Shown here piece by piece: positions 15,385 through 31,001 of a DNA stretch of 43,400 nucleotides. The stretch covers positions 1-43,400 of the forward strand of contig CAZWBY010000001.1 in the NCBI GenBank assembly GCA_964632825.1, written 5' to 3'. Numbering within the stretch: position 1 is the first letter of the stretch; every line of letters starts with the position of its first letter. Source of the DNA: an uncultured Candidatus Bathyarchaeia archaeon (GTDB taxonomy: Archaea > Thermoproteota > Bathyarchaeia > Bathyarchaeales > Bathycorpusculaceae). Below the pieces are notes generated by a model. It was not told the DNA's origin and did not search any database. It was given only the letters and a program-made list of their open reading frames with translations. Position numbers and translations under genes: made by a program.

Positions 15385-15500
15385 TGGCGCCGGGGAAGGG
15401 ACTCGAACCCCTGCGAGCCAAAGGCCCACTGGCTGGCTTGCCCACTTTTCTTACTACGAGGATCTCGAGGCCAGCGCGATAACCACTCCGCCACCCCGGC
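15385..15500 (-). tRNA. tRNA-Ser (anticodon CGA) with a ~29-nt intron at the canonical 37/38 position; CCA encoded
   Basis: Minus strand reads GCCGGGG-TG-GCG-GAGTGGTTAT-CGC-G-CTGGC-CTCGAG-[ATCCTCGTAGTAAGAAAAGTGGGCAAGCC]-A-GCCAG-TGGGCCTTTGGCTCGC-AGGGG-TTCGAGT-CCCTT-CCCCGGC-G-CCA. It has a 7-bp acceptor stem, a 3-bp D stem, a 5-bp anticodon stem once the intron (about 15435-15463) is removed, a 16-nt class II variable arm (GGGCC/GGCTC stem), and a T arm with TTCGAGT. Confidence 0.8.
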
Positions 15501-15879: not shown

Positions 15880-17457
15880 GTGCGACAACCCATGGTCGAG
15901 AAAGAGAAACTGCAGAAAGCCATCGAAGCAACGATAGCAGCAGGATACCAACTGAGCAGCGATGCCTTCGAATTCCTCTGCTCGGGGCTTATCACAGAGG
16001 ACCCTCAGAGCCTAATGCACAAGGCATTGCAGAAGGCAGACGGTCTTGCCGAAAAACCAATGTTTATTCAAAGAATCTTCCTGGAGGAGGTCATCCAAGC
16101 TACCGTCAACGCGCCCTTAGAGAATGGCGGCGCCATGTCCCACTCGCTGATGGAGCCTCCATTGGAGGAAACAATCCACGCCAGTGAGAGCGCAGCAGTT
16201 TTTCACCCATATGCGAAAGACGTTGAAGCGGACATAAAGGTAATCGAAGACCCCACGACAAAACTCAGCTCCAACGGAACATTTGATGATTATCTCCACT
16301 ACTTTCAGGACCGGTTTAAGAGAATAGAGCGATTGCTCAGGCAGAGAATAGACGTTAAATCGGCAACACCCATTCGTGAAGCACTCAAGTCCCAACCGAA
16401 GGCAAAACTCAAGATTGTCTGCATGATAAGCGAAAAGAGGGAGTCCAAGCAAAACATAATATTGACGGTAGAAGACCTTGAGGCGAGTGCCACCGTACTC
16501 GTTACCCACAACGCCAAAGAGGAACTTCGAAGAAAGGCCCAGACGCTCCTTTCCGATCAAGTTGTGTGCCTTGCAGTGGTGAAAACTAGAAGCAGACTCT
16601 TCCTAGCAGAAGACATAATATTCCCCGAAGTGGGTCAAAAAATTCCACACAAAGCACCCGAGCCAATTTACGCCGTTCTAACATCCGACATGCACGTTGG
16701 AAGCACAAAATTCCAGAAAGAAGCGTTCAAACGCTTCATCCTCTGGATCAACGGAAAATACGGAAACGAGAAGATGAAAGAGATGGCCAGCCATGTGAAG
16801 TACGTATTGGTGGCGGGAGACATTGTCGATGGCATCGGAGTTTATCCAAACCAAGCGAAGGAACTGGCTATCAGAGACATACAGAAACAGTACAAGTTTG
16901 CCTCAAGACTGATTGAACGAATTCCAGAATACATTGAAGTCGTTATTTCGCCAGGCAATCACGACGCGCCTCGAAAGGCACTTCCACAACCTGCAATAGC
17001 TAAGGAGTTCCTGGCTTGCCTGAAAGAAAGCAGGACGATCCACTCTCTCGGCGACCCCTGCACCGTTAGCCTTCATGGAGTAGAAGTCCTGATGTATCAT
17101 GGCCGGAGCCTAGATGACATAATCGCTAACATACCAGGAATGGACCCACATTATCCTGAGAAGGCCATGAAACTGCTTCTGCAAAGTCGGCACTTGGCAC
17201 CTCTTTACGGCGGAAAAACCTTGCTCTCGCCAGAGAACCGAGATTTCCTAGTAATAGAACGTGTTCCTGACATCTTCCACGCAGGTCACATTCATGTCTT
17301 GGGGTACTGCAACCACCGCGGAGTCCTAACTGTCAACTCTGGAGGCTGGCAGGAGCAGACTGACTATATGGCGAAGTTGGGCATCACTCCGACACCTGGA
17401 AAGGTGCCACTTGTAAACCTTCAGACCCTTGAGACGACAATCCTTTCTTTCGCGTAG
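15880..17457 (+). CDS. polB: DNA polymerase II (PolD) small subunit DP1
   Basis: 525 aa. OB-fold region, then a calcineurin-like phosphoesterase domain with LTSDMHVGS, VAGDIVDG, GNHD and HAGHIHV motifs. The likely start is ATG 15892 (MVEKEKLQKAIE...). Confidence 0.9.
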   Translation: MRQPMVEKEKLQKAIEATIAAGYQLSSDAFEFLCSGLITEDPQSLMHKALQKADGLAEKPMFIQRIFLEEVIQATVNAPLENGGAMSHSLMEPPLEETIHASESAAVFHPYAKDVEADIKVIEDPTTKLSSNGTFDDYLHYFQDRFKRIERLLRQRIDVKSATPIREALKSQPKAKLKIVCMISEKRESKQNIILTVEDLEASATVLVTHNAKEELRRKAQTLLSDQVVCLAVVKTRSRLFLAEDIIFPEVGQKIPHKAPEPIYAVLTSDMHVGSTKFQKEAFKRFILWINGKYGNEKMKEMASHVKYVLVAGDIVDGIGVYPNQAKELAIRDIQKQYKFASRLIERIPEYIEVVISPGNHDAPRKALPQPAIAKEFLACLKESRTIHSLGDPCTVSLHGVEVLMYHGRSLDDIIANIPGMDPHYPEKAMKLLLQSRHLAPLYGGKTLLSPENRDFLVIERVPDIFHAGHIHVLGYCNHRGVLTVNSGGWQEQTDYMAKLGITPTPGKVPLVNLQTLETTILSFA

Positions 17458-17473: not shown

Positions 17474-18721
17474 TCATCTAGAGTTCACGGAAGAAGAGTT
17501 TGATTTGCATCCGACCAAGCGCGCCAGCCTTACATCGCTGCCAAACACATCTTTCAGTAATGAGCGAGAAACTTCAAGCCTTATTTTTTTCGTGCGACCG
17601 TAGCGTCCCATACTTACAACCTTTGCGTTGAGGATCCCCATCGCGTCAAGTTCGCTAATCAACGTTCCCAGACGCCTCTGGGTCAAGAGACCTGCGCCCA
17701 GTTCACCGCAAGACTCCTTATAAACGTCGTAGATCTCGCCCGTAGTTGAGCTGGATTTGTTCAGGTTGTAAACGCTAAGCACGACCAACTTGGAGTGCAA
17801 AGTCAGGTTCTTGACAGCTTCCGCAACCCTGTCATGCTCAATATGCTTCTCTGCGTCTCGAACATGATCCTCTGTGATGACTTCAGCACCCTGGCGTTCA
17901 GCAACTTCTCCGGCCACTCGAAGCAGATCAAGGGCTCGCCTTGCGTCACCATGCTCGGCTGCTGCAAGAGCAGAACATATGCTCAGCGCAGACTCGGACA
18001 GGCACCCCTCTCGGAACGAAATCTTTGAACGTTCAAGAAGGATATTGCGCAGTTCACTTGCATCATAAGGCCTGAATACTATTTCTTCTTCGCTCAGTGA
18101 GCTTAGGACCCGAGGATCAAGAAACTCTTTCAGCCTCAAGTCATTTGATATGCCTATGAGTGAAACTCGGCTCTTACTGAGAGTCTCGTTTATTCGCGTG
18201 AGCTCGTAGAGAAGCCCGTCGCCCCGGTCTTTAACCAACGCGTCAATTTCATCCAAGGCAATTATGAGAAACGTGCGACTTTGCTCAAGGCTTACCCGGA
18301 ACCGATCAAAAACTTCTCCAACAGACAGCCCCGTAAACGGAACAGCCAAGCCCAGACCTAAGCTGAGGCTGGCGAAGACTCTGTACTCAGATCCTGTCAT
18401 GCGACAGTTAATGTAGCAAAATTTGACTTGGGCGCCGTATTCTTTTGCTTTGGACTCCAAATGGCTGAGAACATATTTGGTCACTGCTGTCTTTCCAGTT
18501 CCGCTTTTCCCATAAATGAAGATGTTCGAACTCCGAGCTTCTTTGAGAACTGGTGCTACTGCTTCGCCCAAAGTACGTATTTGATCGTCTCTGTGAGGGA
18601 GTTTGTCTGGTAGATAATCATGCCTCAGAACCTCTCTGTCTTTGAAGAGTTTGGGGCCATTCACGAATCTTTCGAATACATCGTCAAGTATATTCGACTT
18701 ACTGATTTGTTCATCCCTCAA
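17474..18721 (-). CDS. cdc6: Orc1/Cdc6 replication initiator
   Basis: LPHRDDQI..L......FIYGKSGTGKTAV (Walker A), LIIALDEID (Walker B), sensor regions, and a C-terminal winged helix (SGEIYDVYKESC...QRRLGTLISELDAMGIL). The track ORF runs to ATG 18949 (491 aa). Its first 76 aa are hydrophobic junk and contain an ORB box, so I prefer in-frame TTG 18721 (MRDEQISKSNILDDVFERF...), giving 415 aa. Confidence 0.85.
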   Translation of the reverse strand: MRDEQISKSNILDDVFERFVNGPKLFKDREVLRHDYLPDKLPHRDDQIRTLGEAVAPVLKEARSSNIFIYGKSGTGKTAVTKYVLSHLESKAKEYGAQVKFCYINCRMTGSEYRVFASLSLGLGLAVPFTGLSVGEVFDRFRVSLEQSRTFLIIALDEIDALVKDRGDGLLYELTRINETLSKSRVSLIGISNDLRLKEFLDPRVLSSLSEEEIVFRPYDASELRNILLERSKISFREGCLSESALSICSALAAAEHGDARRALDLLRVAGEVAERQGAEVITEDHVRDAEKHIEHDRVAEAVKNLTLHSKLVVLSVYNLNKSSSTTGEIYDVYKESCGELGAGLLTQRRLGTLISELDAMGILNAKVVSMGRYGRTKKIRLEVSRSLLKDVFGSDVRLARLVGCKSNSSSVNSR

Positions 18722-18850
18722 TCTTTTGCAGAGGCAACACCGATATTTCGTGTGGAGAAGATAAAGCGTGCAGTACAAAAAAATGGTTGCCGTGCACAAC
18801 AATCCTAAAACAGAAGGAAAAGTCAACAATAAGAAAGCGAAGGTTATGGG

Positions 18851-18875
18851 CGCACCCCGAGATTTCCACTGGAAC
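18851..18875 (-). promoter_or_regulatory. ORB1 (origin recognition box)
   Basis: Minus strand reads GTTCCAGTGGAAATCTCGGGGTGCG. That is an exact mini-ORB core TTCCAGTGGAAA followed 4 nt later by the G-string GGGGT. Confidence 0.75.
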
Positions 18876-19038
18876 TGGCTAAAGGAACAGTGCTGAAAAA
18901 TGGCAAAAGTTAAGCTTAACGTAATATACTCTGATAGGTAACCAGTCAAAAGAGATATTAATAATTGCTGTAAAGGTTTTTAGACCCAAACTATCAAAAA
19001 TTTTTGACCAACTTTAGCTTGGTTCCGTTCCCAAAAAC

Positions 19039-19060
19039 TGCAGAGGAAATGCAGGGGGGG
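19039..19060 (+). promoter_or_regulatory. ORB2 (degenerate, opposite orientation to ORB1)
   Basis: TGCAGAGGAAATGCAGGGGGGG. The core has 2 mismatches to TCCAGTGGAAA. A 4-nt spacer is followed by a G-string. Confidence 0.5.
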
Positions 19061-19160
19061 CGGTCCAAATACCGTTGCCCCTGCAAGAAACCCGTTTTCA
19101 TCAAGGAATTTTCATGTTTCTTCCAAAATGGCATCAAGTCTCTGCTGCCCCTAAAAAGGC

Positions 19161-19497
19161 TGTGATCCTCTGCACAGCAGGAACTGGATTTCGATTCACA
19201 TTTTGTGAATACCCTGTGAAATTGTATTAGAGGTGTGCCTTTAACTTCGTCCTTTTGCCTGTTATTTTGCTGTTTCTGTCTTTTTCTTGTGAATATGGCA
19301 CCCCAACGCTTCTACTGGAGATACCTGATTAAGGCAGACTCCTTGGGATTTCTCAGTTTCACAACCTTGTGAAGGTTGTAATACCATAAACTCTGCAATT
19401 CTTGGCTGTTTTCCTTATTTCGCCCTTGTGGGGCTGTTTCACTCTTTGCTACTTCACCATAACAGCTATAAATTGTGAAGTGTAAAGCCTGTGAACA
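19161..19497. repeat. Array of TGTGAA/TTCACA hexamers, including two inverted-repeat sites
   Basis: TGTGAA at 19204, 19215, 19288, 19368, 19474 and 19490. TTCACA at 19195 and 19358. TGTGATC at 19161. Inverted repeats: ATTCACA-TTT-TGTGAAT (19194-19210) and TTCACAA-CC-TTGTGAA (19358-19373), the latter overlapping ACAACCTT-GTG-AAGGTTGT (19361-19379). Confidence 0.7.
19298..19320 (-). promoter_or_regulatory. ORB3 (degenerate, same orientation as ORB1)
   Basis: Minus strand reads CTCCAGTAGAAGCGTTGGGGTGC. The core is TCCAGTAGAAG (2 mismatches), then a 4-nt spacer and GGGGTGC, which is identical to the ORB1 G-string context. Confidence 0.55.
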
Positions 19498-19517
19498 TCT
19501 TTCCGGTTGCTCATACA

Positions 19518-19949
19518 ATGCCGGCCAAGAAAATGCGCGTAGAGCTCTTCGATAGCGAAGGCAACAAGTATACTGTCGCCTTCGAAGGTCAAATCACTAG
19601 GGACAAGGCTCTTCGCCTCCTAGATCTGGTTGAGCTGCTTGGAGGGATGCCGAATGACAGCGCAACCCAGAGCGCTGGGCAGTCGATAGGTGTGGTCAAT
19701 CCCTCTAGAATTGAGAAGGTTCGATCGCTTGTCCAGAAGAATTTTCCACTAATATGGTTCTCGTCTCGGGATGTTCAAACGGCTTACGAACAAGAGCTCA
19801 AAGAGCCAGTGACATTGAGCACTGTTTCAACTTACCTATCTCGTATGTCGGGCAAGGGCTGGTTAACCAGAGTTGGAGAGGGCAACAACCTAAAGTACAA
19901 ACTGGCGCCAAGCATACCTCTCGCAAAGATCAAACAACAGAATAAGTAG
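19518..19949 (+). CDS. Hypothetical protein with a C-terminal winged-helix DNA-binding domain
   Basis: MPAKKMRVELFDSEGNKYTVAFEG... with C-terminal VTLSTVSTYLSRMSGKGWLTRVGEGNNLKYKL (HTH plus wing). The track ORF starts at GTG 19491, inside the last TGTGAA site. ATG 19518 is preferred. Confidence 0.5.
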   Translation: MPAKKMRVELFDSEGNKYTVAFEGQITRDKALRLLDLVELLGGMPNDSATQSAGQSIGVVNPSRIEKVRSLVQKNFPLIWFSSRDVQTAYEQELKEPVTLSTVSTYLSRMSGKGWLTRVGEGNNLKYKLAPSIPLAKIKQQNK

Positions 19950-20076
19950 CTGGTTGATAAAAGTGTCAGCAATTTGTCTTGGTTTACTTCAAGCAACGTT
20001 CCAGCAAAACGTAAAATTGTTATAACTAGTCGCGCTATTCTCTCTTTGTCAGATCCTTTACGGGGCAGCAGAATTA

Positions 20077-21096
20077 TTGAACTCCAATGTTGAGATGGAC
20101 TTTGCAGAGATGGAAACCAGGCTGAGAACCTATGTGGACAAGGGCAGGGTCTCCGGCGGATCTGAGTTCAAGGAAGAACCATTGACAAGGGTCAGACCCG
20201 ACGCTTCTCTCATAAGACCCCTTCGTAGAATGAGCGAATCCTCCGGGAGTTTTTTGGCTGTTGATTGCTCGACTCGTACCCTAAAACGAGCCAACAACTG
20301 GGGAATTTATCTAATGCGCCCTTCCTTTGTCGTCGTCCGAAATAGAGACGTAAACTGGGGTTTCGAGGAACGAATCTGTACCGTTGTCGGAGACTCCTAT
20401 ACTCGTAGTAACTTCTTGACAGATGTCCGAATCGAACTTGAGAGTCAAGTTGCTCTAGAACTCTTGCTCGACAAAAACAAGTCTGCTTACTACGAGTATC
20501 CTGATCCCGCAAATGACTACTTGCTGCTGGATGGAGGAGGATACTTTGGGGGAGAGAGGAAGTTTCGTGTCTCGTTGTACGAACAATGTGAGAAGATTGG
20601 ACTGAATCTTGTTGCCGTGTCCAAGAACTCGCCCTCGCTTCACGATGACAAGGGGAGAGATTTCGTTTCAAGCGCCTCTGCACTTTCTCCATGGGGCATA
20701 TGGGTGTATTACCCGGTCAGAAAGGCCGACAAGGATAAGAGCCTATATGGCGACATAACCATTGTTAAACTCTGCGAAGAGAGTAGTCATGTTTTCAGGT
20801 GTGATGTGATGGATTATCTAACCACACGCGAACTAAGCGATCTGTTGTCTCCGCTTACAAGCATATCTGAGGATCCTCGGTGCATCGGCTATCCCATTTG
20901 CCTCTATCTAGCTCATGATTTCTCTGCTCCTTCTGATTCGATGCTTCTCACCTATCATGACATAATTGAAGAGAGGCTGAAGAATGCTAATCTGCTTGAA
21001 AGCCTACGCAGGGAAGAAAAATGCAGTAGTTTTGGTGACGAGCTTCACGGGGTCAAGCGTGCTTTCCAGAGGGAAAGATGGAATGAACAATACTAA
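20077..21096 (+). CDS. nurA: NurA-like 5'-3' nuclease domain protein
   Basis: The ordered motifs FLAVDCS, IELESQ, DYLLLDGGGYF, LVAVSKNSPSL and IGYPICLYLAHDFS correspond to the NurA catalytic Asp/Glu/Asp and C-terminal His-region motifs as I remember them. TTG start; the first ATG is at 20095. Confidence 0.6.
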   Translation: MNSNVEMDFAEMETRLRTYVDKGRVSGGSEFKEEPLTRVRPDASLIRPLRRMSESSGSFLAVDCSTRTLKRANNWGIYLMRPSFVVVRNRDVNWGFEERICTVVGDSYTRSNFLTDVRIELESQVALELLLDKNKSAYYEYPDPANDYLLLDGGGYFGGERKFRVSLYEQCEKIGLNLVAVSKNSPSLHDDKGRDFVSSASALSPWGIWVYYPVRKADKDKSLYGDITIVKLCEESSHVFRCDVMDYLTTRELSDLLSPLTSISEDPRCIGYPICLYLAHDFSAPSDSMLLTYHDIIEERLKNANLLESLRREEKCSSFGDELHGVKRAFQRERWNEQY

Positions 21097-22612
21097 CCCC
21101 ATTGGATTCGTGTGCAAATCGGCGGCGGACTCTGTTTCCTTCCTGGTCAACAAAGAGACATGCCTATCATTTGGTCAAATAGTCCGAATCGAGTCAGATG
21201 AACGAATCTTCTACGCTAGGGTTGTCAACTCTGAAAGCAGCTCCACACTTGATCTCGTAGAACAACTACGGGAAGCTGAAGGCAAGGAGGCGTTTGGTCC
21301 CTATTCTGCCTACAGAAACGTCGATGCCATGCTCTTTCTCGAGAAGAGACTTGGAAGGGTTCGATCTCCCACATTCAATCCGAACTACAGAGACAAAGTA
21401 TTCACTGCCAACCAAGAAGACTGTACCATTCTTAAACTATCCGGGGATATCGAAATCGGTCGCTTGCGTTCTGAAGATCAGCTCTTGGGCTCTGTCGGGA
21501 TCAACATTGAAGCAGTACCACGCATGATGGGCATGTTTGGAATGACTGGCTCGGGCAAAACCAATACAGAACTTATTCTTAACGCACAAATAATTGATCA
21601 AAGCCCCAAGGCTGTCGCTCTGATTTTCGATTTCGCGGGGCAACTTCTAGAAGGGAAGGAAATAACTCCCCAGCAAGGGCTAAAAGATCACCCGCTTTTC
21701 CACACCAAAGTACAGTACTACTCACAGAGAGACGGCAAGCTCTCGGTAGGATTACATACTATAACACCTGGAAGACTCGACACTCTCTTTCCAGATATCC
21801 AGCCCCCGCAGAGGAGACTAGCATGGGCATTGTACAGGCAACTAGGCGCAACGTGGGTTGAAAGAGCCCGCGAAAGCTACCGTGCGAGCGGAACAGTTGA
21901 GATAAGAGCCCAGAAGTCAGTTGTTGAAGCCCTGATGCAGAAACTCGCCTCTTTGCCTGCAGACGTATTTCCAACCTCGAATTACACTTTTGTTGAGAGC
22001 CTTCGCGACAACATCTGCAGAGGCATTACGTGTCTGGTCGATATCTCAGGACTGCGTTCCGAAGACCAAAACCGAATTGTCTGCCTCTCGACCTCAATTA
22101 TTGCTGAACACTACAAACGGACGTGGGAGCAATCCTACGAGGATTGGCAGAAGCTACCCACACTCCTTATCACACTCGAGGAAGCGCACGAGTTTCTTGA
22201 CCCCAACAAGCCACGAACAATATTCTCTGACATTGCACTCACCTATCGAAAGTACCGGGTGGGGCTTAACGCAGTCACTCCGCGACCATCTAGAATTAAC
22301 TTTGATGTTTTTGCAGAACTCTGGACCAAAGTCATCATGAAAACTGAATTGAAGAAAGACAGAATCTACCTAACCGAGAATACTCCTTTTATGGAGTACA
22401 GCGAGACCGAGATCAAGATGCTTGATGTGGGGGAGGCTTTGCTCATTTCGGAACCGAAGATGAAGTTTGCAGTTCCAGTGAAGGTGGTGCACTATCCTGA
22501 GTATCTGAAGAAACGTGGGCACAGCGACTACGGACTTGACTCTCCGCCTCTTGACAAGATGGATAACCGCCTCAGGACGCTTCGGGATCAAACCGCAATG
22601 TCATTTGGTTAG
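21083..22612 (+). CDS. herA: HerA-like (FtsK/HerA superfamily) hexameric ATPase/helicase
   Basis: N-terminal barrel-like region (FGQIVRIESDERIFYARVV), Walker A GMTGSGKTN, Walker B LLITLEEAHEF, and RKYRVGLNAVTPRPSRI (HerA R-finger/sensor segment). ATG 21083 overlaps the nurA-like stop by 14 nt. The track start at 20984 is an in-frame extension through nurA. Confidence 0.7.
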   Translation: MNNTNPIGFVCKSAADSVSFLVNKETCLSFGQIVRIESDERIFYARVVNSESSSTLDLVEQLREAEGKEAFGPYSAYRNVDAMLFLEKRLGRVRSPTFNPNYRDKVFTANQEDCTILKLSGDIEIGRLRSEDQLLGSVGINIEAVPRMMGMFGMTGSGKTNTELILNAQIIDQSPKAVALIFDFAGQLLEGKEITPQQGLKDHPLFHTKVQYYSQRDGKLSVGLHTITPGRLDTLFPDIQPPQRRLAWALYRQLGATWVERARESYRASGTVEIRAQKSVVEALMQKLASLPADVFPTSNYTFVESLRDNICRGITCLVDISGLRSEDQNRIVCLSTSIIAEHYKRTWEQSYEDWQKLPTLLITLEEAHEFLDPNKPRTIFSDIALTYRKYRVGLNAVTPRPSRINFDVFAELWTKVIMKTELKKDRIYLTENTPFMEYSETEIKMLDVGEALLISEPKMKFAVPVKVVHYPEYLKKRGHSDYGLDSPPLDKMDNRLRTLRDQTAMSFG

Positions 22613-23394
22613 TTTTGGTTAGCCTCTGGCTTTTTCAGTAGTTGTTCCATTTCTTTCTTCACGCTATACCTAAAAGGAATCTTTCCGGTCTCCCTCTCAA
22701 CGTAACCTTCTTCGTAGAGCTTCTTCATTACTCTGGCTGTATGTTCGCGGCTTAGCTTGACTCTATCTTTAATCTCAGGAGCAGTTTTCGAACCCTCTGC
22801 AGAGAGCGTCTCTAACACTACTATTTCGGTATCGGTGAGAGTGGCCAGCGCTTTGTCTCTTCTGATCGGAATGACTAGGGCACTCTTAATCTCAGGTGAA
22901 GTTGATAGTTTCTCCAACTGGCTGGCTAACGTCGCTACCTGTTCTCTCAGTGTTTCTTGAGTCGATTCGAAGTCTCTGACTTTCGCAGAGATGTCTCCCA
23001 GCACGATGGAGATGTTTTGGTCCTGCTTTGGGTTTTCAGTCACTTGGGTTTCGAGGGGTGCGATTCTCTTCTCAACTTCTACCGCTCTTTTCAGTGTGGA
23101 ATCGATCTTGCCAGCGTTACCCTCAATCTTGTAACCCATAATCTCAATCTTCTCGGAGGTTCTTCTAAGCTCTCGATTGAAACTGAGGACGATGTCCTCA
23201 ACTAGACCCTTTGATTTTTCGTACTCCGCCTTAGCTCGACGTAGCTGTCTAGAATACTCCACAGTTGCCACGACGGTAGCCGTGAGTAGTATTGCAGCAA
23301 GACCTATGATCCATTCAAACACTTGTTTCACTTCTGTGACCCTGTTGTGATCTTTGTGATCTGGGTCACACATCACAGTTTGCTCCATAGGCAT
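22609..23394 (-). CDS. Membrane-anchored coiled-coil protein with a C-terminal MarR/TrmB-like wHTH
   Basis: His/Asp-rich tip CDPDHKDH. One TM helix FEWIIGLAAILLTATVVATV. About 130 aa of charged heptad-like sequence (LRRAKAEYEKSKGLVEDI...LREQVATLASQLEKL). The wHTH is LTDTEIVVLETLSAEGSKTAPEIKDRVKLSREHTARVMKKLYEEGYVERE. Its stop overlaps the herA-like stop by 4 nt in convergent orientation. In-frame GTG starts just before the TM are possible alternatives. Confidence 0.55.
   Translation of the reverse strand: MPMEQTVMCDPDHKDHNRVTEVKQVFEWIIGLAAILLTATVVATVEYSRQLRRAKAEYEKSKGLVEDIVLSFNRELRRTSEKIEIMGYKIEGNAGKIDSTLKRAVEVEKRIAPLETQVTENPKQDQNISIVLGDISAKVRDFESTQETLREQVATLASQLEKLSTSPEIKSALVIPIRRDKALATLTDTEIVVLETLSAEGSKTAPEIKDRVKLSREHTARVMKKLYEEGYVERETGKIPFRYSVKKEMEQLLKKPEANQN
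23335..23378. repeat. TGTGAY repeat cluster: tandem TTGTGATCT x2 plus flanking TGTGAC / GTCACA / ATCACA
   Basis: TGTGAC (23335), TTGTGATCT (23345-23353), TTGTGATCT (23354-23362), GTCACA (23365-23370), ATCACA (23372-23377). It lies at the extreme 5' end of, or just upstream of, the TM-coiled-coil-wHTH gene. Confidence 0.65.
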
Positions 23395-23427: not shown

Positions 23428-23438
23428 TGACGTCACAC
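23428..23438. repeat. TGACGTCACAC, copy 1 (contains the 8-bp palindrome TGACGTCA)
   Basis: An exact 11-nt match to 23603-23613. Confidence 0.6.
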
Positions 23439-23600
23439 ATCACGGATTACTCCCTCGCCAATCACAAGACGTTCTTCTTGGAGGCCGCTGAAAAATCGGC
23501 TGATTTGTCCTTTATTTCTGACCAAACCTCCAATTCTTGCTTATTTTGCCAGGGGTTCCTTGGGTCCCTTAGGCAGTTTTCCTGCTGCACCTTCGTGATT

Positions 23601-23613
23601 TGTGACGTCACAC
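23601..23613. repeat. Perfect 12-bp palindrome TGTGACGTCACA; includes copy 2 of TGACGTCACAC
   Basis: TGTGACGTCACA (23601-23612) is self-complementary. It abuts the stop codon of gene 23613-24083. Confidence 0.6.
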
Positions 23614-24083
23614 TACTCTTTTGAGCCTGCTGCAAGGTGTTTGAGGCTCGTTTCGAGCTCTTCTCGGATTAATTCGATGACTTTTTGATGATCTTCGGCT
23701 TCTTGTCCACTTGGGGTGCTATAGTGTGCTTCAACGTAATCGCGCAGTTTGTTCGCGATTTCGAGGTAAGGGTCAAGAGTTGTGCTCTCAAACACTCCCA
23801 AGTAACCCAATAGCAAGACGGTGTATACTGATTTAATTACGTTTTCTTTAGACTGTTTTAGGGTCCTATTGAACGATCCACGGCTTATTTTAGCCTTAGT
23901 TAGCCTTAATCTGGCTTTTTCGTCGTATATAAGCTGTTTGCCTGATAAATTTTCGGCTAAAATGTCTATTAGCAGTGTTTCAAGCTGTGTTTTTGTCAAT
24001 TGACTGTTTTTGGCGAGTATTTTTACTATGGGGTCTGAGAGTGCACTATTTAGCCACGCTTGGACGCCTTCTTTTAGTTTCAA
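23613..24083 (-). CDS. Hypothetical 156-aa helical protein, possible HTH
   Basis: TTG start, and no Met anywhere else in the protein. ISRGSFNRTLKQSKENVIKSV resembles an HTH recognition segment. No family recognised. Confidence 0.4.
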   Translation of the reverse strand: MKLKEGVQAWLNSALSDPIVKILAKNSQLTKTQLETLLIDILAENLSGKQLIYDEKARLRLTKAKISRGSFNRTLKQSKENVIKSVYTVLLLGYLGVFESTTLDPYLEIANKLRDYVEAHYSTPSGQEAEDHQKVIELIREELETSLKHLAAGSKE

Positions 24084-24424
24084 GATGTCCGCTCCGCATT
24101 AATGCTGAATGGATACGCTTTCGTATACCGGTGCCGTTCTTAAGTCTTTTTGGTTGCATTCGAGCGGCACAATATTGAAACCCGGCGACCATTTGATGGG
24201 TGTTCCGCCTCATTGGGGCGTTATTAGCATATTTAATCGCGCATATGGGATTAATTTGGCTTTTGAATTGTTTCTATCAGCTTTAAGGTATTTTGAGGCT
24301 GTTTTTGCTCCCTATTGCTCTCAGCTTATAGATCGGATAGTGCTCAAGCTTTACTCAGTAACATTCTGCTGAGAGGTGGCTCTGTTTCTCAGTTGAGCTT
24401 ATTACACGAAGGTGGCTTGGCGTT

Positions 24425-24576
24425 CACAGATCACTCCTGCTTTTCCCAAGCTCCATTCTGCTACCGTGGAAAGCCGTTCTTTACTGGCTGTGACGATGAT
24501 TGTCACATTCGAATCACGTGTGATTCCTTTGTTTCTTGAGCATCACAGCAGATGTGATCTTGTTGTGATCTGTGTG
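24425..24576. repeat. Second TGTGAT-type repeat cluster in a 548-bp non-coding gap
   Basis: CACAGATCAC (24425-24434) is the reverse complement of GTGATCTGTG (24565-24574). GAATCAC-GT-GTGATTC (24511-24526) has 7-bp inverted arms. ATCACA-GCAGA-TGTGAT is at 24542-24558. TGTGATCT is at 24553-24560 and TTGTGATCT at 24563-24571. Confidence 0.65.
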
Positions 24577-24631
24577 TGGTTAATTCCTGTTTGTGGGCAT
24601 ATTTTAACCGGGGATTGGTGATGCTAACCCC

Positions 24632-27587: not shown

Positions 27588-30500
27588 GTGACCTACAACA
27601 TCAGCTCTAGCTACCAAGCCTACGTTCAAGATCTAGAGCTGAGACTGAAAGAGCTTTACGCAGTTAGTGAAAGGGCTAGATCGGTGGGTTTTGACCCTTG
27701 TCTGAGTACTGAATGCACGGTCGCAAAAGACATAGCTGACCTTGTTGAAGGATTGGTGGGACCGAAAGGCGTTGCTTTAAGCATCCGCGAATTATCAACC
27801 AAACTTCAGAGGGAAGAGATTGCCTTCAAGGTTGCTGAGGAAATCGTCTACGGCAAGTTTGGGCATTTAGAACCAGAAGCCGCGGCGGAGCAAGCAATCA
27901 GAACTGCTCTGGCAATTTTTACGGAGGGTCTAACTGCTGCTCCCATACAAGGGGTCTCAAAAGTAAAAATCAAACTGAACCTTGACAAGACACGCTATCT
28001 GGCAATATACTTTGCAGGTCCGATACGGTCGGCGGGGGGCACGGACCAAGCTCTAACGCTGGTTGTAGGGGATTTCGTGCGCCGATTGCTAGGACTTGAT
28101 CGCTACAAAGTCACAACTGAAGAAATTTCACGTTTTGTAGAAGAGCTTCGGTTGTATGAACGTTCAGTTGGACGCTTTCAATACCACATTCCTGACGAAG
28201 AACTGAAAAAAGCACTCAACTGGCTTCCAGTAGAGGTAACGGGCACGGAGTCTGATCCAGTGGAGGTTTCTTCTTTCAGAAACCTCCAGAGAGTGGAGAC
28301 CAATCGCGTAAGAGGCGGCGCCCTCCGCGTTGTCAACGATGGGATCGTAGGACGGGCTCCAAAAGTCCTCGTAATAATAGAGAAGCTTGGTTTCCAAGGG
28401 TGGGACTGGCTAAGAGAATTCCGCAAGAAATCAGAAAAGAAATCAGCTGGATTCATGGATGACGTGATAGCCGGTAGACCCATTTTCTGTTTTCCCTCGA
28501 GGCGAGGCGGCTTTAGGTTGAGGTACGGCAGATCGCGCAACACAGGGCTTTCCGCGGTGGGCATTCATCCCGCAACAATGCTAGTTCTAGAAAACTTTCT
28601 TGCTGCTGGAACTCAGGTCCGCATCGAACTTCCTGGAAAAGGCGGAGTAACTGTCCCGGTGGACTCACTGGAACCTCCTGTTGTCTTGTTGAAAGATGGC
28701 TCTGTCACGCGCGTAACGCTCGAGACCTTCGGTCAAGTAAAGGGCAAAATTGAAAAGATACTCTTCTTGGGCGACCTTCTGATAAGCTTTGGAGATTTTC
28801 TCTACACGAGCAAACCCCTTTCTCCTTCACCATACGTGGAAGAATGGTGGGTTGAGGATCTCAAGAAGGAAATAACTGAACATTTTGATGGAAATCTAAA
28901 GAAAGCCTCAGAAGCAGCCAAGCTGACGGAAACAAGACTATTAGCACTGTTGGGTTCTCCATTCGTAGAATTGCCCAGTCCGCGAGAAGCCATCTCCCTA
29001 TCCCAGTGCTTGCATGTACCCTTGCATCCGAAATTCACCTTCTTCTGGTCCGGCTTATCTTCCGAGACTGACGTTCTCCACCTTAAAGAATGGTTAAGCA
29101 GTTCAGAGGTCACCCTCGAAGATTCTTGCGCCTCCAAGATAGACGGTCCCTACGAGGCAAAAGTAGTGCAGTCTTTGAGAAACGTTCTTGCTCCACACAG
29201 AGTGTCCAACGATCGAATAGTACTCGAAAACGATGATGCTATTGCTCTTACCTTTTCGCTTGGTTACAAGACTTCGAGAACTGCAAATCAAGCAGACGGA
29301 CAGGTTCTGAAGACAGTAAGCTCTCTTTCAGGGGTGGAGATTCGGGAAAAAGCCCCCACGTTCGTTGGTGCACGTATGGGCAGACCGGAAAAAGCCAAGA
29401 GGCGCGAGATGAAACCCATGGTGCACGTTCTCTATCCCGTCAGCTTGGCTGGAGGCTCTCACCGCGATATCGTTGAGGCTTCAAGGAAAGGACCCGTGTT
29501 CATTGACGTAGCCAAGCGAAAATGTCCAGTGTGCAAATCGTATATGATTAGAGTTTTATGCCCTGATTGCGGCTGCGAGACCCAAGTTGAGAAAAGTTGT
29601 CCGGTTTGTGGGAAATCCCTTAAGGAGAACAGTTGCTCAGTGTGCAAAGCTGCTCCCGTGCCCTACCAGCGGCAGGCTGTGAACTTCAAGGAACTGCTGG
29701 AAGGTGCTTGCCGTTCTCTGGGTGCGCCCACGCCCAAGCGTTTGAAAGGCGTCAAGGGTCTAACAAATGAGGATAAGACCCCAGAGATCCTTGAAAAGGG
29801 AGTTTTACGCGCAAAGTATGATTTGTCTGTCTACAAAGATGGCACAATCAGATTTGATGTTACCAATGCTCCTTTGAGCCACTTTAAGCCGAGAGAGATT
29901 GGTGTGGATGTTGGGGTCCTCACTCGTTTAGGCTACGACCACGACATCTACGGGAAATCATTGGCCAACGCTGACCAGATTTGTGAACTGAAAATCCAGG
30001 ATGTTGTAGTTCCAAGAAAAGCAGCAGAGTATTTCGTCCAGGTAGCTGGCTTCATTGATGACCTCCTAACCAAGATCTACAAGCTTCCTAGTTTCTACAA
30101 TGTTTCCAGCGTGGATGAGATGGTGGGGCATCTCACACTGGGCTTAGCCCCGCATACGTGTGTGAGCATACTAGGACGCATTATTGGCTTCACAGACCTC
30201 GATGTCTGCTATGCTCATCCGATATGGCACTCGGCAAAACGTCGGGATTGTGACGGCGATGAGGACACCCTAATGCTAGCCCTGGATACTCTTCTGAACT
30301 TTTCACGGAGGTATCTCCCCGCTCAAATTGGGGGGATTATGGACGCACCCTTGTTGCTTATTCCTTTCGTGAACACCAAGGAGGTGCAACGGCAGGCTCA
30401 CGATCTGGATGTTGCTTCTGCATACCCGATAGAATTCTACCAGAAGACCCTGGATAAGGTCGAGCCGCGAACCGTCAGCTCAATAATGGATGTAGTGAGT

Positions 30501-31001
30501 CACAGACTTGGCACAGAAGCTCAGTTTGAGGGTTTCAATTTCACGACACCGGTGACTAACATAAACATGGGGAACGCCCACAGTTCATACAAACAGTTCA
30601 AGTCTATGATAGAGAAGCTTAACATGCAGCTTGCGCTCGGTGAAAAAATTGAAGCTGTCGACGCTCGCCGTGTTGCATTAAAAGTTCTGACTACCCACTT
30701 TCTACGTGATATAGCCGGGAACTTGCGAGCGTTCTCAACCCAAAGTTTCAGATGCAAATCGTGCAACAAATCTTTCCGTCGGTTGCCTCTCCGCGGGAAG
30801 TGCTCCTTCTGTGGCGGCTCCCTAACACTCACAGTCTATCGCGGCGGAATTGAGAAATACCTTGATGCTGCTCAACATTTGATTAATGACTATGATTTGC
30901 CACCCTACTACACTCAGCGATTGACTCTGATAAGGTCTGAAATCGCATCAATGTTTGACAACAAGAAACCAAAGCAGATCAGCCTTATGGCCTTCAGCTA
31001 A
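27588..31001 (+). CDS. polC: DNA polymerase II (PolD) large catalytic subunit DP2
   Basis: 1137 aa. YFAGPIRSAGGT, NDGIVGRAP, GRP.F.FPSRRGGFRLRYGRSRNTG and GARMGRPEKAK are present. Cys clusters: CPVCKS...CPDCG...CPVCG...CSVCK, CDGDED, and the C-terminal FRCKSCN...CSFCGG. No intein-sized insertion is evident. Confidence 0.95.
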   Translation: MTYNISSSYQAYVQDLELRLKELYAVSERARSVGFDPCLSTECTVAKDIADLVEGLVGPKGVALSIRELSTKLQREEIAFKVAEEIVYGKFGHLEPEAAAEQAIRTALAIFTEGLTAAPIQGVSKVKIKLNLDKTRYLAIYFAGPIRSAGGTDQALTLVVGDFVRRLLGLDRYKVTTEEISRFVEELRLYERSVGRFQYHIPDEELKKALNWLPVEVTGTESDPVEVSSFRNLQRVETNRVRGGALRVVNDGIVGRAPKVLVIIEKLGFQGWDWLREFRKKSEKKSAGFMDDVIAGRPIFCFPSRRGGFRLRYGRSRNTGLSAVGIHPATMLVLENFLAAGTQVRIELPGKGGVTVPVDSLEPPVVLLKDGSVTRVTLETFGQVKGKIEKILFLGDLLISFGDFLYTSKPLSPSPYVEEWWVEDLKKEITEHFDGNLKKASEAAKLTETRLLALLGSPFVELPSPREAISLSQCLHVPLHPKFTFFWSGLSSETDVLHLKEWLSSSEVTLEDSCASKIDGPYEAKVVQSLRNVLAPHRVSNDRIVLENDDAIALTFSLGYKTSRTANQADGQVLKTVSSLSGVEIREKAPTFVGARMGRPEKAKRREMKPMVHVLYPVSLAGGSHRDIVEASRKGPVFIDVAKRKCPVCKSYMIRVLCPDCGCETQVEKSCPVCGKSLKENSCSVCKAAPVPYQRQAVNFKELLEGACRSLGAPTPKRLKGVKGLTNEDKTPEILEKGVLRAKYDLSVYKDGTIRFDVTNAPLSHFKPREIGVDVGVLTRLGYDHDIYGKSLANADQICELKIQDVVVPRKAAEYFVQVAGFIDDLLTKIYKLPSFYNVSSVDEMVGHLTLGLAPHTCVSILGRIIGFTDLDVCYAHPIWHSAKRRDCDGDEDTLMLALDTLLNFSRRYLPAQIGGIMDAPLLLIPFVNTKEVQRQAHDLDVASAYPIEFYQKTLDKVEPRTVSSIMDVVSHRLGTEAQFEGFNFTTPVTNINMGNAHSSYKQFKSMIEKLNMQLALGEKIEAVDARRVALKVLTTHFLRDIAGNLRAFSTQSFRCKSCNKSFRRLPLRGKCSFCGGSLTLTVYRGGIEKYLDAAQHLINDYDLPPYYTQRLTLIRSEIASMFDNKKPKQISLMAFS

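Follow-up and report, generated by a model that had tools for sequence, protein, structure and literature searches.

What do a nurA-like gene, a herA-like gene and a convergent gene for a membrane-anchored DNA-binding protein do side by side, next to a predicted replication origin? The question is raised by a 43.4-kb stretch of DNA (the window, by which we mean the whole stretch analysed), a housekeeping stretch of a Bathyarchaeia chromosome whose close homologues all come from Bathyarchaeia or Bathyarchaeota metagenome-assembled genomes (MAGs) or from unlabelled metagenomes. A sequence-only reading had proposed the three genes as a candidate module, working either as an origin-proximal DNA device or in defence. 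We consider it likely that the first two genes are a divergent, dispensable, ancestral two-gene NurA-HerA end-processing cassette located in an origin island, and that gene 3 is a separate gene, adjacent through a shared, old syntenic block. All three open reading frames (ORFs) are present, together with the motifs quoted for them:

20077-21096, forward strand: gene 1, NurA-type nuclease, 339 amino acids (aa)
21083-22612, forward strand: gene 2, predicted HerA-type translocase/ATPase, 509 aa
22609-23394, reverse strand: gene 3, membrane anchor, long helices and a winged helix-turn-helix (wHTH) of the MarR/TrmB/Lrs14 type

Gene 1 is a NurA nuclease with catalytic residues D63, E122, D152 and H280. 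It is assigned as such despite a sub-threshold Pfam score because three independent lines of evidence agree, namely a fold match, a profile bridge and invariant catalytic residues. The top Foldseek match of its AlphaFold2 (AF2) model in the Protein Data Bank (PDB) is 2YGK, the NurA of Sulfolobus solfataricus (E = 1.2e-7, TM 0.52/0.55), followed by the NurA proteins of Thermococcus kodakarensis, Pyrococcus furiosus and Deinococcus radiodurans (7F6D_G, E = 1.3e-4); four NurA structures stand among the top nine matches. EndoV and PIWI folds come after the NurA structures, as expected for the RNase-H-like fold class. The profile of close homologues (alignment A1) found no match among PDB sequences; that of the subfamily in a wider alignment (A2) matches 2YGK at 5e-8. 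A2 joins the window protein and its subfamily to distant relatives, and 37 of its 46 sequences match Pfam NurA (PF09376) at E <= 0.001, the best at 8e-14. An exhaustive profile search of 1.84 billion cluster representatives returned about 11 full-length clusters of the gene 1 subfamily as well as proteins of about 340 aa that match Pfam NurA. Where named, the distant relatives carry annotations as NurA of Woesearchaeota, Nanoarchaeota and Thermoprotei. D63, E122, D152 and the triplet G271-Y272-P273 are invariant across the 46 aligned sequences, canonical NurAs included, and H280 is invariant within the subfamily, its segment aligning with GYPFPLLKAH of 2YGK.

Gene 2 is identified from its sequence as a HerA-type hexameric translocase/ATPase. 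It passes the Pfam cut-off for DUF87 (PF01935; 43.2 against 23.2 bits, E = 6.6e-11), and its closest solved relative is S. solfataricus HerA (4D2I; 3e-16 with the single sequence, 8.4e-23 with a profile, residues 108-472). In the PDB ranking this protein is followed by T. kodakarensis HerA, with the anti-phage HerAs lower (E = 4e-9 to 6e-5 with the single sequence, 6e-11 to 6e-8 with the HerA profile). The Walker A (GMTGSGKT), Walker B (LEEAH) and RKYRVG...TPRPS motifs align with those of S. solfataricus HerA. The Glu-Glu pair of Walker B had been thought unusual, which is mistaken: S. solfataricus HerA carries IEEAHVFL at the same position. Residues 1-107, the HAS-barrel region, do not align to 4D2I by sequence, and a barrel-like N-domain is what we infer for them; residues 7-113 behave as a separable module that is reused, at 60% identity, beside a NurA-like gene in locus L085. 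In databases, the family of gene 1 is labelled ‘hypothetical protein’ and that of gene 2 ‘ATP-binding protein’.

The top NCBIfam score of gene 2 is for CedD (72.8 bits against a cut-off of 600), the best stretch covering only residues 104-186, the P-loop region. An identity with CedD was rejected given this score, the lack of an obvious hydrophobic segment in the translation as judged by eye, the absence of ced genes nearby and the NurA partner.

Genes 1 and 2 are an overlapping two-gene operon. The ATG of gene 2 at 21083 lies 14 nt inside gene 1, which ends with a TAA at 21094-21096, and homologue lengths of 509-510 aa favour this start over an upstream ATG at 20984. The two genes are adjacent in all 80 genome loci of the survey described below and in loci L084, L087, L089 and L091. 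The pair looks like a transcription unit of its own, outside the regulon suggested by the TGTGA repeats of this region, because it has its own BRE/TATA-like element and TGTGA is absent there:

20013-20028, forward strand: putative transcription factor B recognition element (BRE)/TATA promoter of the NurA-HerA operon, AAAATTGTTATAAC, recognised by sequence pattern only

An element of the AAAATATAAAA / AGATAATAAG type is conserved 55-75 nt 5' of the NurA start in about 60 loci, with a GGAGG-like site after it in many of them. At the NurA promoter, the window has no TGTGA site and the pooled loci have 0.27 per 100 bp, near the background of 0.18. A 16-nt inverted repeat (TCTGCTGCCCCTAAAA / TTTACGGGGCAGCAGA, 88% complementary) was also observed, with one copy at 19141-19156 in the oriC spacer and the other at 20057-20072, just 5' of the NurA start codon.

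To place the pair in its neighbourhood, the NurA subfamily was searched in one genome per GTDB species. The best 80 loci of the 111 relatives found were used; all are from Bathyarchaeia (two mis-binned), with NurA identity down to 51%. Downstream synteny was counted in 65 of these loci and upstream synteny in 60, as these had enough flank. The conserved order across the 80 species-level genomes is DP1 > < Cdc6 / oriC / small wHTH > NurA > HerA > < gene 3 < o156. Besides genes 1 to 3, the features of this part of the window are:

15880-17457, forward strand: DP1, DNA polymerase D (PolD) small subunit, left end of the conserved origin island; Pfam DNA_pol_E_B/Metallophos in the L001-L003 orthologues; in 59/60 loci
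17474 to about 18720, reverse strand: Orc1/Cdc6 initiator; Cdc6 Pfam domains in orthologues of 401-459 aa; in 60/60 loci
between Cdc6 and the small wHTH gene: gene-free spacer of about 780 bp
19491-19949, forward strand: small wHTH protein, 152 aa, encoded ahead of NurA in the same direction; in 58/60 loci
23613-24083, reverse strand: o156, a 156-aa orphan next to gene 3 on its upstream side
after o156: CN-hydrolase, NAD synthase, Elf1 and GGGP synthase (PcrB family)
27588-31001, forward strand: DP2, PolD large subunit

Gene 3 and o156 follow HerA in 65 of 65 loci. The block is intact where the Elf1-PcrB-DP2 segment has been relocated to the other side (L024, L073, L076, L078 and L079), and it is also kept in the metagenome lineage L091, in which NurA identity is 44%. 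The stop codons of herA and gene 3 are separated by a median of 0 nt; in the window, the TAG of gene 2 (22610-22612) and the stop of gene 3 (22609-22611, reverse strand) converge with the 4-nt overlap that had been described. The conserved unit is larger than three genes. Across the loci, identity to the window orthologue rises and falls with that of DP2 and Cdc6 (Spearman 0.62-0.90 for all block genes, 0.62-0.84 for NurA and HerA), and HerA has a median identity of 72%, against 74% for DP2. Because of this fixed synteny and this divergence in step with DP2 and Cdc6, we conclude that NurA-HerA is inherited vertically at a fixed site, which is neither a defence nor a mobile island.

This result bears on the proposal that the pair serves in nuclease-helicase defence against mobile elements, with gene 3 as membrane sensor or regulator. 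HerA-family ATPases are known in defence, gene 2 has weak PADLOC matches to HerA (PDLC01055, spanning residues 28-187) and mad8, and the pair is polymorphic for presence and absence. For the copy in the window we nevertheless regard a defence role as very unlikely: the locus is fixed amid housekeeping genes in 80 species and descends vertically, the changes of state seen are losses only, from a root state of ‘present’, and no excess of defence neighbours was seen in the 80 loci. PADLOC matched neither gene 1 nor any system, the NCBIfam anti-phage HerA models NF042943 and NF042944 give 20 bits against cut-offs of 800-850 (HerA_Thermprot gives 67), and the partner is NurA and not Sir2, DUF4297 or another known effector. 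A scan of IMG/VR viral contigs with the NurA subfamily found no relatives.

NurA seeding finds only genomes that have NurA, which makes the pair look universal; a survey seeded with gene 3 was added to correct for this. It consists of the 80 metagenome loci closest to the window gene 3, some of them near-identical contigs, and so does not give a class-wide loss rate. Of these loci, 54 were evaluable and 28 were length-unbiased, meaning that they would extend to the small wHTH gene with or without the pair. NurA-HerA is intact in 12 of the 28 and missing from 16; locus L094 lacks it as well. In the 16 deleted loci, gene 3 lies 33-540 bp from the small wHTH gene, and o156, Cdc6, DP1 and the remaining genes are kept, with identities in the normal range. 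Among the 54 evaluable loci, eleven of those with a deletion retain fragments, and the deletion endpoints vary: remnants include NurA 1-79, HerA 310-485 or 365-508 and a NurA(1-139)/HerA(424-508) junction, and L148-L150, which were scored as deleted, hold a 37-residue HerA remnant. Some of the deleted loci still show a legible NurA promoter and the final codons of HerA. On a neighbour-joining tree of o156 and gene 3, the deleted loci fall mostly into one subclade, with at least 5-9 state changes and a root state of ‘present’.

The NurA-HerA pair is therefore ancestral to the class yet dispensable, and has been lost through many different internal deletions. Gene 3, o156 and the small wHTH gene are independent of it, because all three are retained where the pair is deleted. 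Of the proposed three-gene neighbourhood, the adjacency of gene 3 held in 65 of 65 loci; the notion that the three genes are one functional module did not hold, because gene 3 persists without the pair, the pair exists without gene 3 and the promoter of the pair is separate and free of TGTGA. Loss in many mesophilic relatives fits the dispensability seen elsewhere: Haloferax has no HerA-NurA, and in Deinococcus and Thermus it is not essential (PMC7776575).

The same loss pattern weakens the other proposal, in which the origin island is one device: gene 3 would bind TGTGA sites in and near oriC and act as a membrane tether for the origin DNA or for the HerA ring, and HerA-NurA would move or process DNA close to the origin, in segregation or in replication-coupled repair. 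The constant position of gene 3 beside herA in the NurA-seeded loci, with next to no gap between the stop codons, and the persistence of the block through rearrangement of its flank speak for such a device, and HerA was reportedly proposed as an archaeal FtsK-like segregation pump by Iyer et al. in 2004. We judge it unlikely all the same, since gene 3, o156 and the small wHTH gene outlive the pair in many independent deletion alleles. herA and gene 3 are moreover convergent and therefore not co-transcribed, and DP1, Cdc6 and o156 are linked as tightly, so adjacency does not single out gene 3.

Copies of the pair outside the origin island point the same way, as deep lineages and mobile copies hold it without gene 3 or the origin. 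L084 (NurA identity 26%) and the Hecatellales loci L087 and L088, all from deep-branching Bathyarchaeia, keep NurA-HerA away from Cdc6/DP1 and without gene 3. Upstream of the pair, L084 and L087 carry a divergent gene for a calcineurin-like phosphoesterase of 207-210 aa (L084:9242-9874; L087:4423-5046) and a gene of the metallo-beta-lactamase fold (Lactamase_B_2), an arrangement thus shared by two distant lineages. The phosphoesterase was considered as a mini-Mre11 and rejected, its best PDB matches being aq_1956 and TT1561. Downstream, L084 has genes for a weakly Snf7-like protein and a small HTH-like protein (both with sub-threshold Pfam scores) and for a KaiC-like ATPase; the two genes 3' of its HerA were rejected as homologues of gene 3 and o156, as they show no BLAST similarity.

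Other copies lie in mobile or defence-like surroundings; the L052 copy and the relatives on ParB- or TnpB-carrying elements count in favour of the defence proposal. The MAG with the origin copy L011 has a further NurA-HerA copy, L052 (3505-16803; 57% and 69% identity), whose neighbours are an integrase, the M and S genes of a type I restriction-modification system, a HEPN/AbiV gene, a Rad51-like gene and a family-B DNA polymerase. L089 holds the pair with a TnpB-like gene and ParB, and L090 holds NurA alone, in both cases without gene 3 or the origin. L085 (10001-12554) and L086 (8572-11125) share one arrangement on an integrated element with ParB and integrase: downstream of a NurA-like gene, which has 43% identity and keeps its catalytic residues, lies a gene for a 518-aa protein. 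The first 110 or so residues of the latter, as encoded in L085, are HerA-like and correspond to the N-terminal module of gene 2 described above; the rest lacks an ATPase domain and is Toprim-like (Pfam TOP6A/Spo11 Toprim, E = 0.019; PHROG topoisomerase, 5e-5). This protein may be a NurA partner of new architecture, and some NurA-HerA paralogues may have been recruited into defence-like islands.

The position between Cdc6/DP1 and DP2 in about 80 species also allows a replication-linked role, in which the pair would process stalled or collapsed forks or origin intermediates and its place at the origin would provide high gene dosage. Archaeal replication genes are genomically associated with recombination and repair genes (PMC2643942), and because HerA-NurA is essential in Sulfolobus, roles linked to replication have been hypothesised for it (PMC5797428, PMC4471258). 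The argument is one from position, and we think it improbable that this is the role of the pair, given that deep lineages keep it away from Cdc6/DP1 and that its frequent loss speaks against indispensability.

The best reading of gene 3 is that of a separate DNA-binding protein of the MarR/Lrs14 type with a membrane anchor. It scores above the Pfam cut-offs for MarR (PF01047; 33.6 against 24.6 bits) and TrmB (PF01978; 33.6 against 25.6 bits). In its AF2 model, a long helix (residues 11-120) and a second one (126-163) precede a wHTH (188-228), and Foldseek on this model returned only the wHTH domains of MarR, Lrp and related proteins, all weakly (best E = 0.012, none at <= 0.001). A hydrophobic N-terminal helix is found in 75 of 76 orthologues. 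The architecture first described for gene 3, a single-pass transmembrane (TM) helix followed by about 130 aa of coiled-coil-like sequence and a wHTH, is hence borne out, apart from its His/Asp-rich tip, which is not conserved: many orthologues begin about four residues ahead of the TM helix. The anchor and the long helices are atypical for the MarR/TrmB/Lrs14 family. The long helices suggest that the protein is probably dimeric, and a basic RRAK stretch after the TM helix places the wHTH, by prediction, on the cytoplasmic side. The conserved TM helix and the predicted cytoplasmic wHTH are counted in favour of the single-device proposal above.

The two other lineage-specific genes of the island were also examined. 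The small wHTH protein just passes the cut-off of Pfam Penicillinase_R (23 against 22.6 bits), and its gene is kept where NurA-HerA is deleted. o156 has a median identity of 74%, similar to that of DP2, and adjoins gene 3 in 65 of 65 NurA-seeded and 50 of 50 gene-3-seeded loci; its profile found no match in Pfam or the PDB. By eye, its central ISRGSFNRTLKQ segment appears HTH-like.

The spacer between Cdc6 and the small wHTH gene is the predicted replication origin, which agrees with the suggestion that the pair lies under 1 kb from oriC. Its origin recognition box (ORB) elements, which in the window follow the consensus GCACCCC-N5-TTCYACTGGA, and the TGTGA-type sites of the region are:

18851-19320: oriC core, an A+T-rich stretch bounded by two ORB-like elements, about 0.8 kb upstream of the pair
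18851-18874: ORB-like element 1, GCACCCC-N5-TTCCACTGGAA, inside the over-long Cdc6 ORF
19296-19320: ORB-like element 2, GCACCCC-N5-TTCTACTGGAG
19203-19479: cluster of five TTGTGAA sites ahead of the small wHTH gene, that is, 5 of the 11 TTGTGAA sites of the window within 277 bp
23428-23613: gene 3 promoter spacer, flanked by two TGACGTCACAC palindromes (23428-23438 and 23603-23613)
candidate TGTGA-type sites for the small wHTH protein, gene 3 and o156: TGTGAYRTCACA and TTGTGAA

A TTCCAGTAGAA core is found in 40 of 70 orthologous Cdc6-wHTH spacers and GGGGTGTC repeats in 25 of 70; TGTGAAGTG, from the spacer that holds the TTGTGAA cluster, is conserved in 41 of 70 loci. The mechanical call of the Cdc6 ORF is 491 aa long (17474-18949, reverse strand) and covers the first ORB, compared with 401-459 aa in orthologues. 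Translation probably begins at a non-ATG codon close to position 18720.

The TGTGA repeats had been described as studding this region, and they are indeed dense and conserved over about 70 genomes. The density of TGTGA/TCACA in the window is 1.48 per 100 bp in the Cdc6-wHTH spacer and about 1.8 in the gene 3-o156 spacer, compared with 0.20 over all of the window. When some 70 genomes are pooled, the values are 0.88 and 2.34 against a background of 0.18; the two spacers are enriched 5-12 times over background. The motif marks the promoters of the small wHTH gene and of gene 3 and is palindromic at the latter, where four matches with at most one mismatch were found against 0.43 expected. TGTGATGT occurs in 64 of 70 orthologous gene 3-o156 spacers and TGACGTCA in 40 of 70. 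Gene 3 probably regulates itself through these promoter palindromes. Related TGTGA-N-TCACA palindromes were also seen at 24440-24580, filling the 548-bp spacer between o156 and the CN-hydrolase gene.

TGTGA-type sites in both the oriC spacer and the gene 3 promoter are in keeping with gene 3 acting at the origin, and the background level of the motif at the NurA promoter argues against the pair being part of such a device. A variant that gives the pair a lesser part is that the small wHTH protein, gene 3 and o156 would be a lineage-specific origin-handling trio that binds the TGTGA sites in and around oriC and attaches the origin to the membrane, with HerA-NurA as an optional accessory that, where present, would process or translocate DNA near the origin. 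We hold this to be unlikely; if true, it would mean a mechanism of origin tethering or segregation that is new for archaea.

Three observations concern the rest of the window. At 15388-15500 (reverse strand), Rfam detects a tRNA of 113 nt (47.7 bits) where ARAGORN finds none; this is probably an archaeal tRNA with an intron. The 548-bp stretch at 24084-24631 has neither genes nor an Rfam match. The distance from o156 to the CN-hydrolase gene is about 1.8 kb rather than about 1 kb in many related genomes, which suggests a variable extra gene or element in this spacer in relatives.

Under the reading that we prefer, a two-gene NurA-HerA cassette beside an unrelated gene 3, herA is translationally coupled to nurA through the 14-nt overlap. 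The HerA hexamer would load a NurA dimer via its N-terminal domain, as inferred from the complexes of Sulfolobus, Pyrococcus, Thermococcus and Deinococcus, and would drive duplex DNA ends into the two RNase-H-like NurA sites. The outcome would be DNA end resection for homologous recombination or the restart of broken forks. Gene 3 would abut herA as a member of the same old syntenic block, with no joint function.

Several points weigh against this reading. The score of gene 1 on Pfam NurA is 15.2 bits (E = 0.016), under the cut-off of 21 bits, and its AF2 model is of moderate quality only (pLDDT 64.8). Gene 2 lies far under the NCBIfam HerA equivalog cut-offs (HerA_Thermprot NF040937, 67 against 800 bits; helicase_HerA NF040819, 45 against 970 bits). 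The end-resection role would be carried over from distant homologues. Lastly, gene 3 is tightly and universally adjacent wherever the origin-block pair exists, and a facultative interaction between them is possible.

With this identification, a protein annotated only as ‘hypothetical’ across an abundant uncultured archaeal class acquires a name and a catalytic site, and the HerA-NurA of this class is placed in a replication-origin island instead of with mre11-rad50. The statement that mre11 and rad50 are missing from the window is confirmed for the ORFs scanned (all those of at least 330 aa and most mid-size ones), and both were also absent from the 10-kb flanks on either side of the three loci with called genes (L001-L003). 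The literature held nothing relevant on Mre11, Rad50, HerA or origins in Bathyarchaeia. Mesophilic lineages have lost the pair repeatedly by deletion, a natural experiment on whether cells can do without a system essential to Sulfolobus. As for novelty at the origin, the small wHTH gene, gene 3 and o156, with their shared TGTGA-type motif, are better candidates than HerA-NurA.

Among known systems, the pair resembles most of all the HerA-NurA of Sulfolobus, Pyrococcus and Thermococcus (4D2I, 2YGK, 3TAL, 9X1L), with which it shares adjacent overlapping genes, the NurA fold, an Asp/Glu/Asp/His site and an EEAH Walker B; compared with S. solfataricus, the sizes are 339 against 339 aa for NurA and 509 against 500 aa for HerA. 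It differs from the thermophile systems in its high divergence, in its location in an origin island and in the lack of mre11-rad50 in the window. HerA-NurA is essential in Sulfolobus islandicus (PMC4351679), whereas the pair described here is deleted in many relatives. The NurA-HerA of D. radiodurans (7F6D) and Thermus thermophilus is likewise a non-essential two-gene pair, but the window proteins are nearer to those of Thermoproteota and the bacterial pair has no origin-island context. The anti-phage systems Sir2-HerA (8WIV), DUF4297-HerA (8XAU) and TdpAB (8WET) have the HerA-family ATPase core in common with gene 2; unlike them, the locus studied here has a NurA partner with an intact nuclease site, a fixed vertical position and negligible equivalog scores. 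Other archaeal oriC islands also have an ORB-type oriC beside cdc6 and PolD genes with recombination or repair genes embedded, as in Pyrococcus, where we take the cluster to be cdc6-DP1-DP2-radB; here, in contrast, the embedded repair genes are nurA-herA, accompanied by three lineage-specific genes (small wHTH, gene 3 and o156). CedD, the membrane-bound VirD4-like FtsK-HerA ATPase of the Ced DNA-import system (PMC11823120), shares the FtsK-HerA superfamily P-loop with gene 2, but gene 2 shows no obvious TM segment and has no CedA or CedB neighbours. Taken against these systems, the pair is a highly divergent, previously unannotated representative of the known HerA-NurA system, in a setting that is unusual but explicable.

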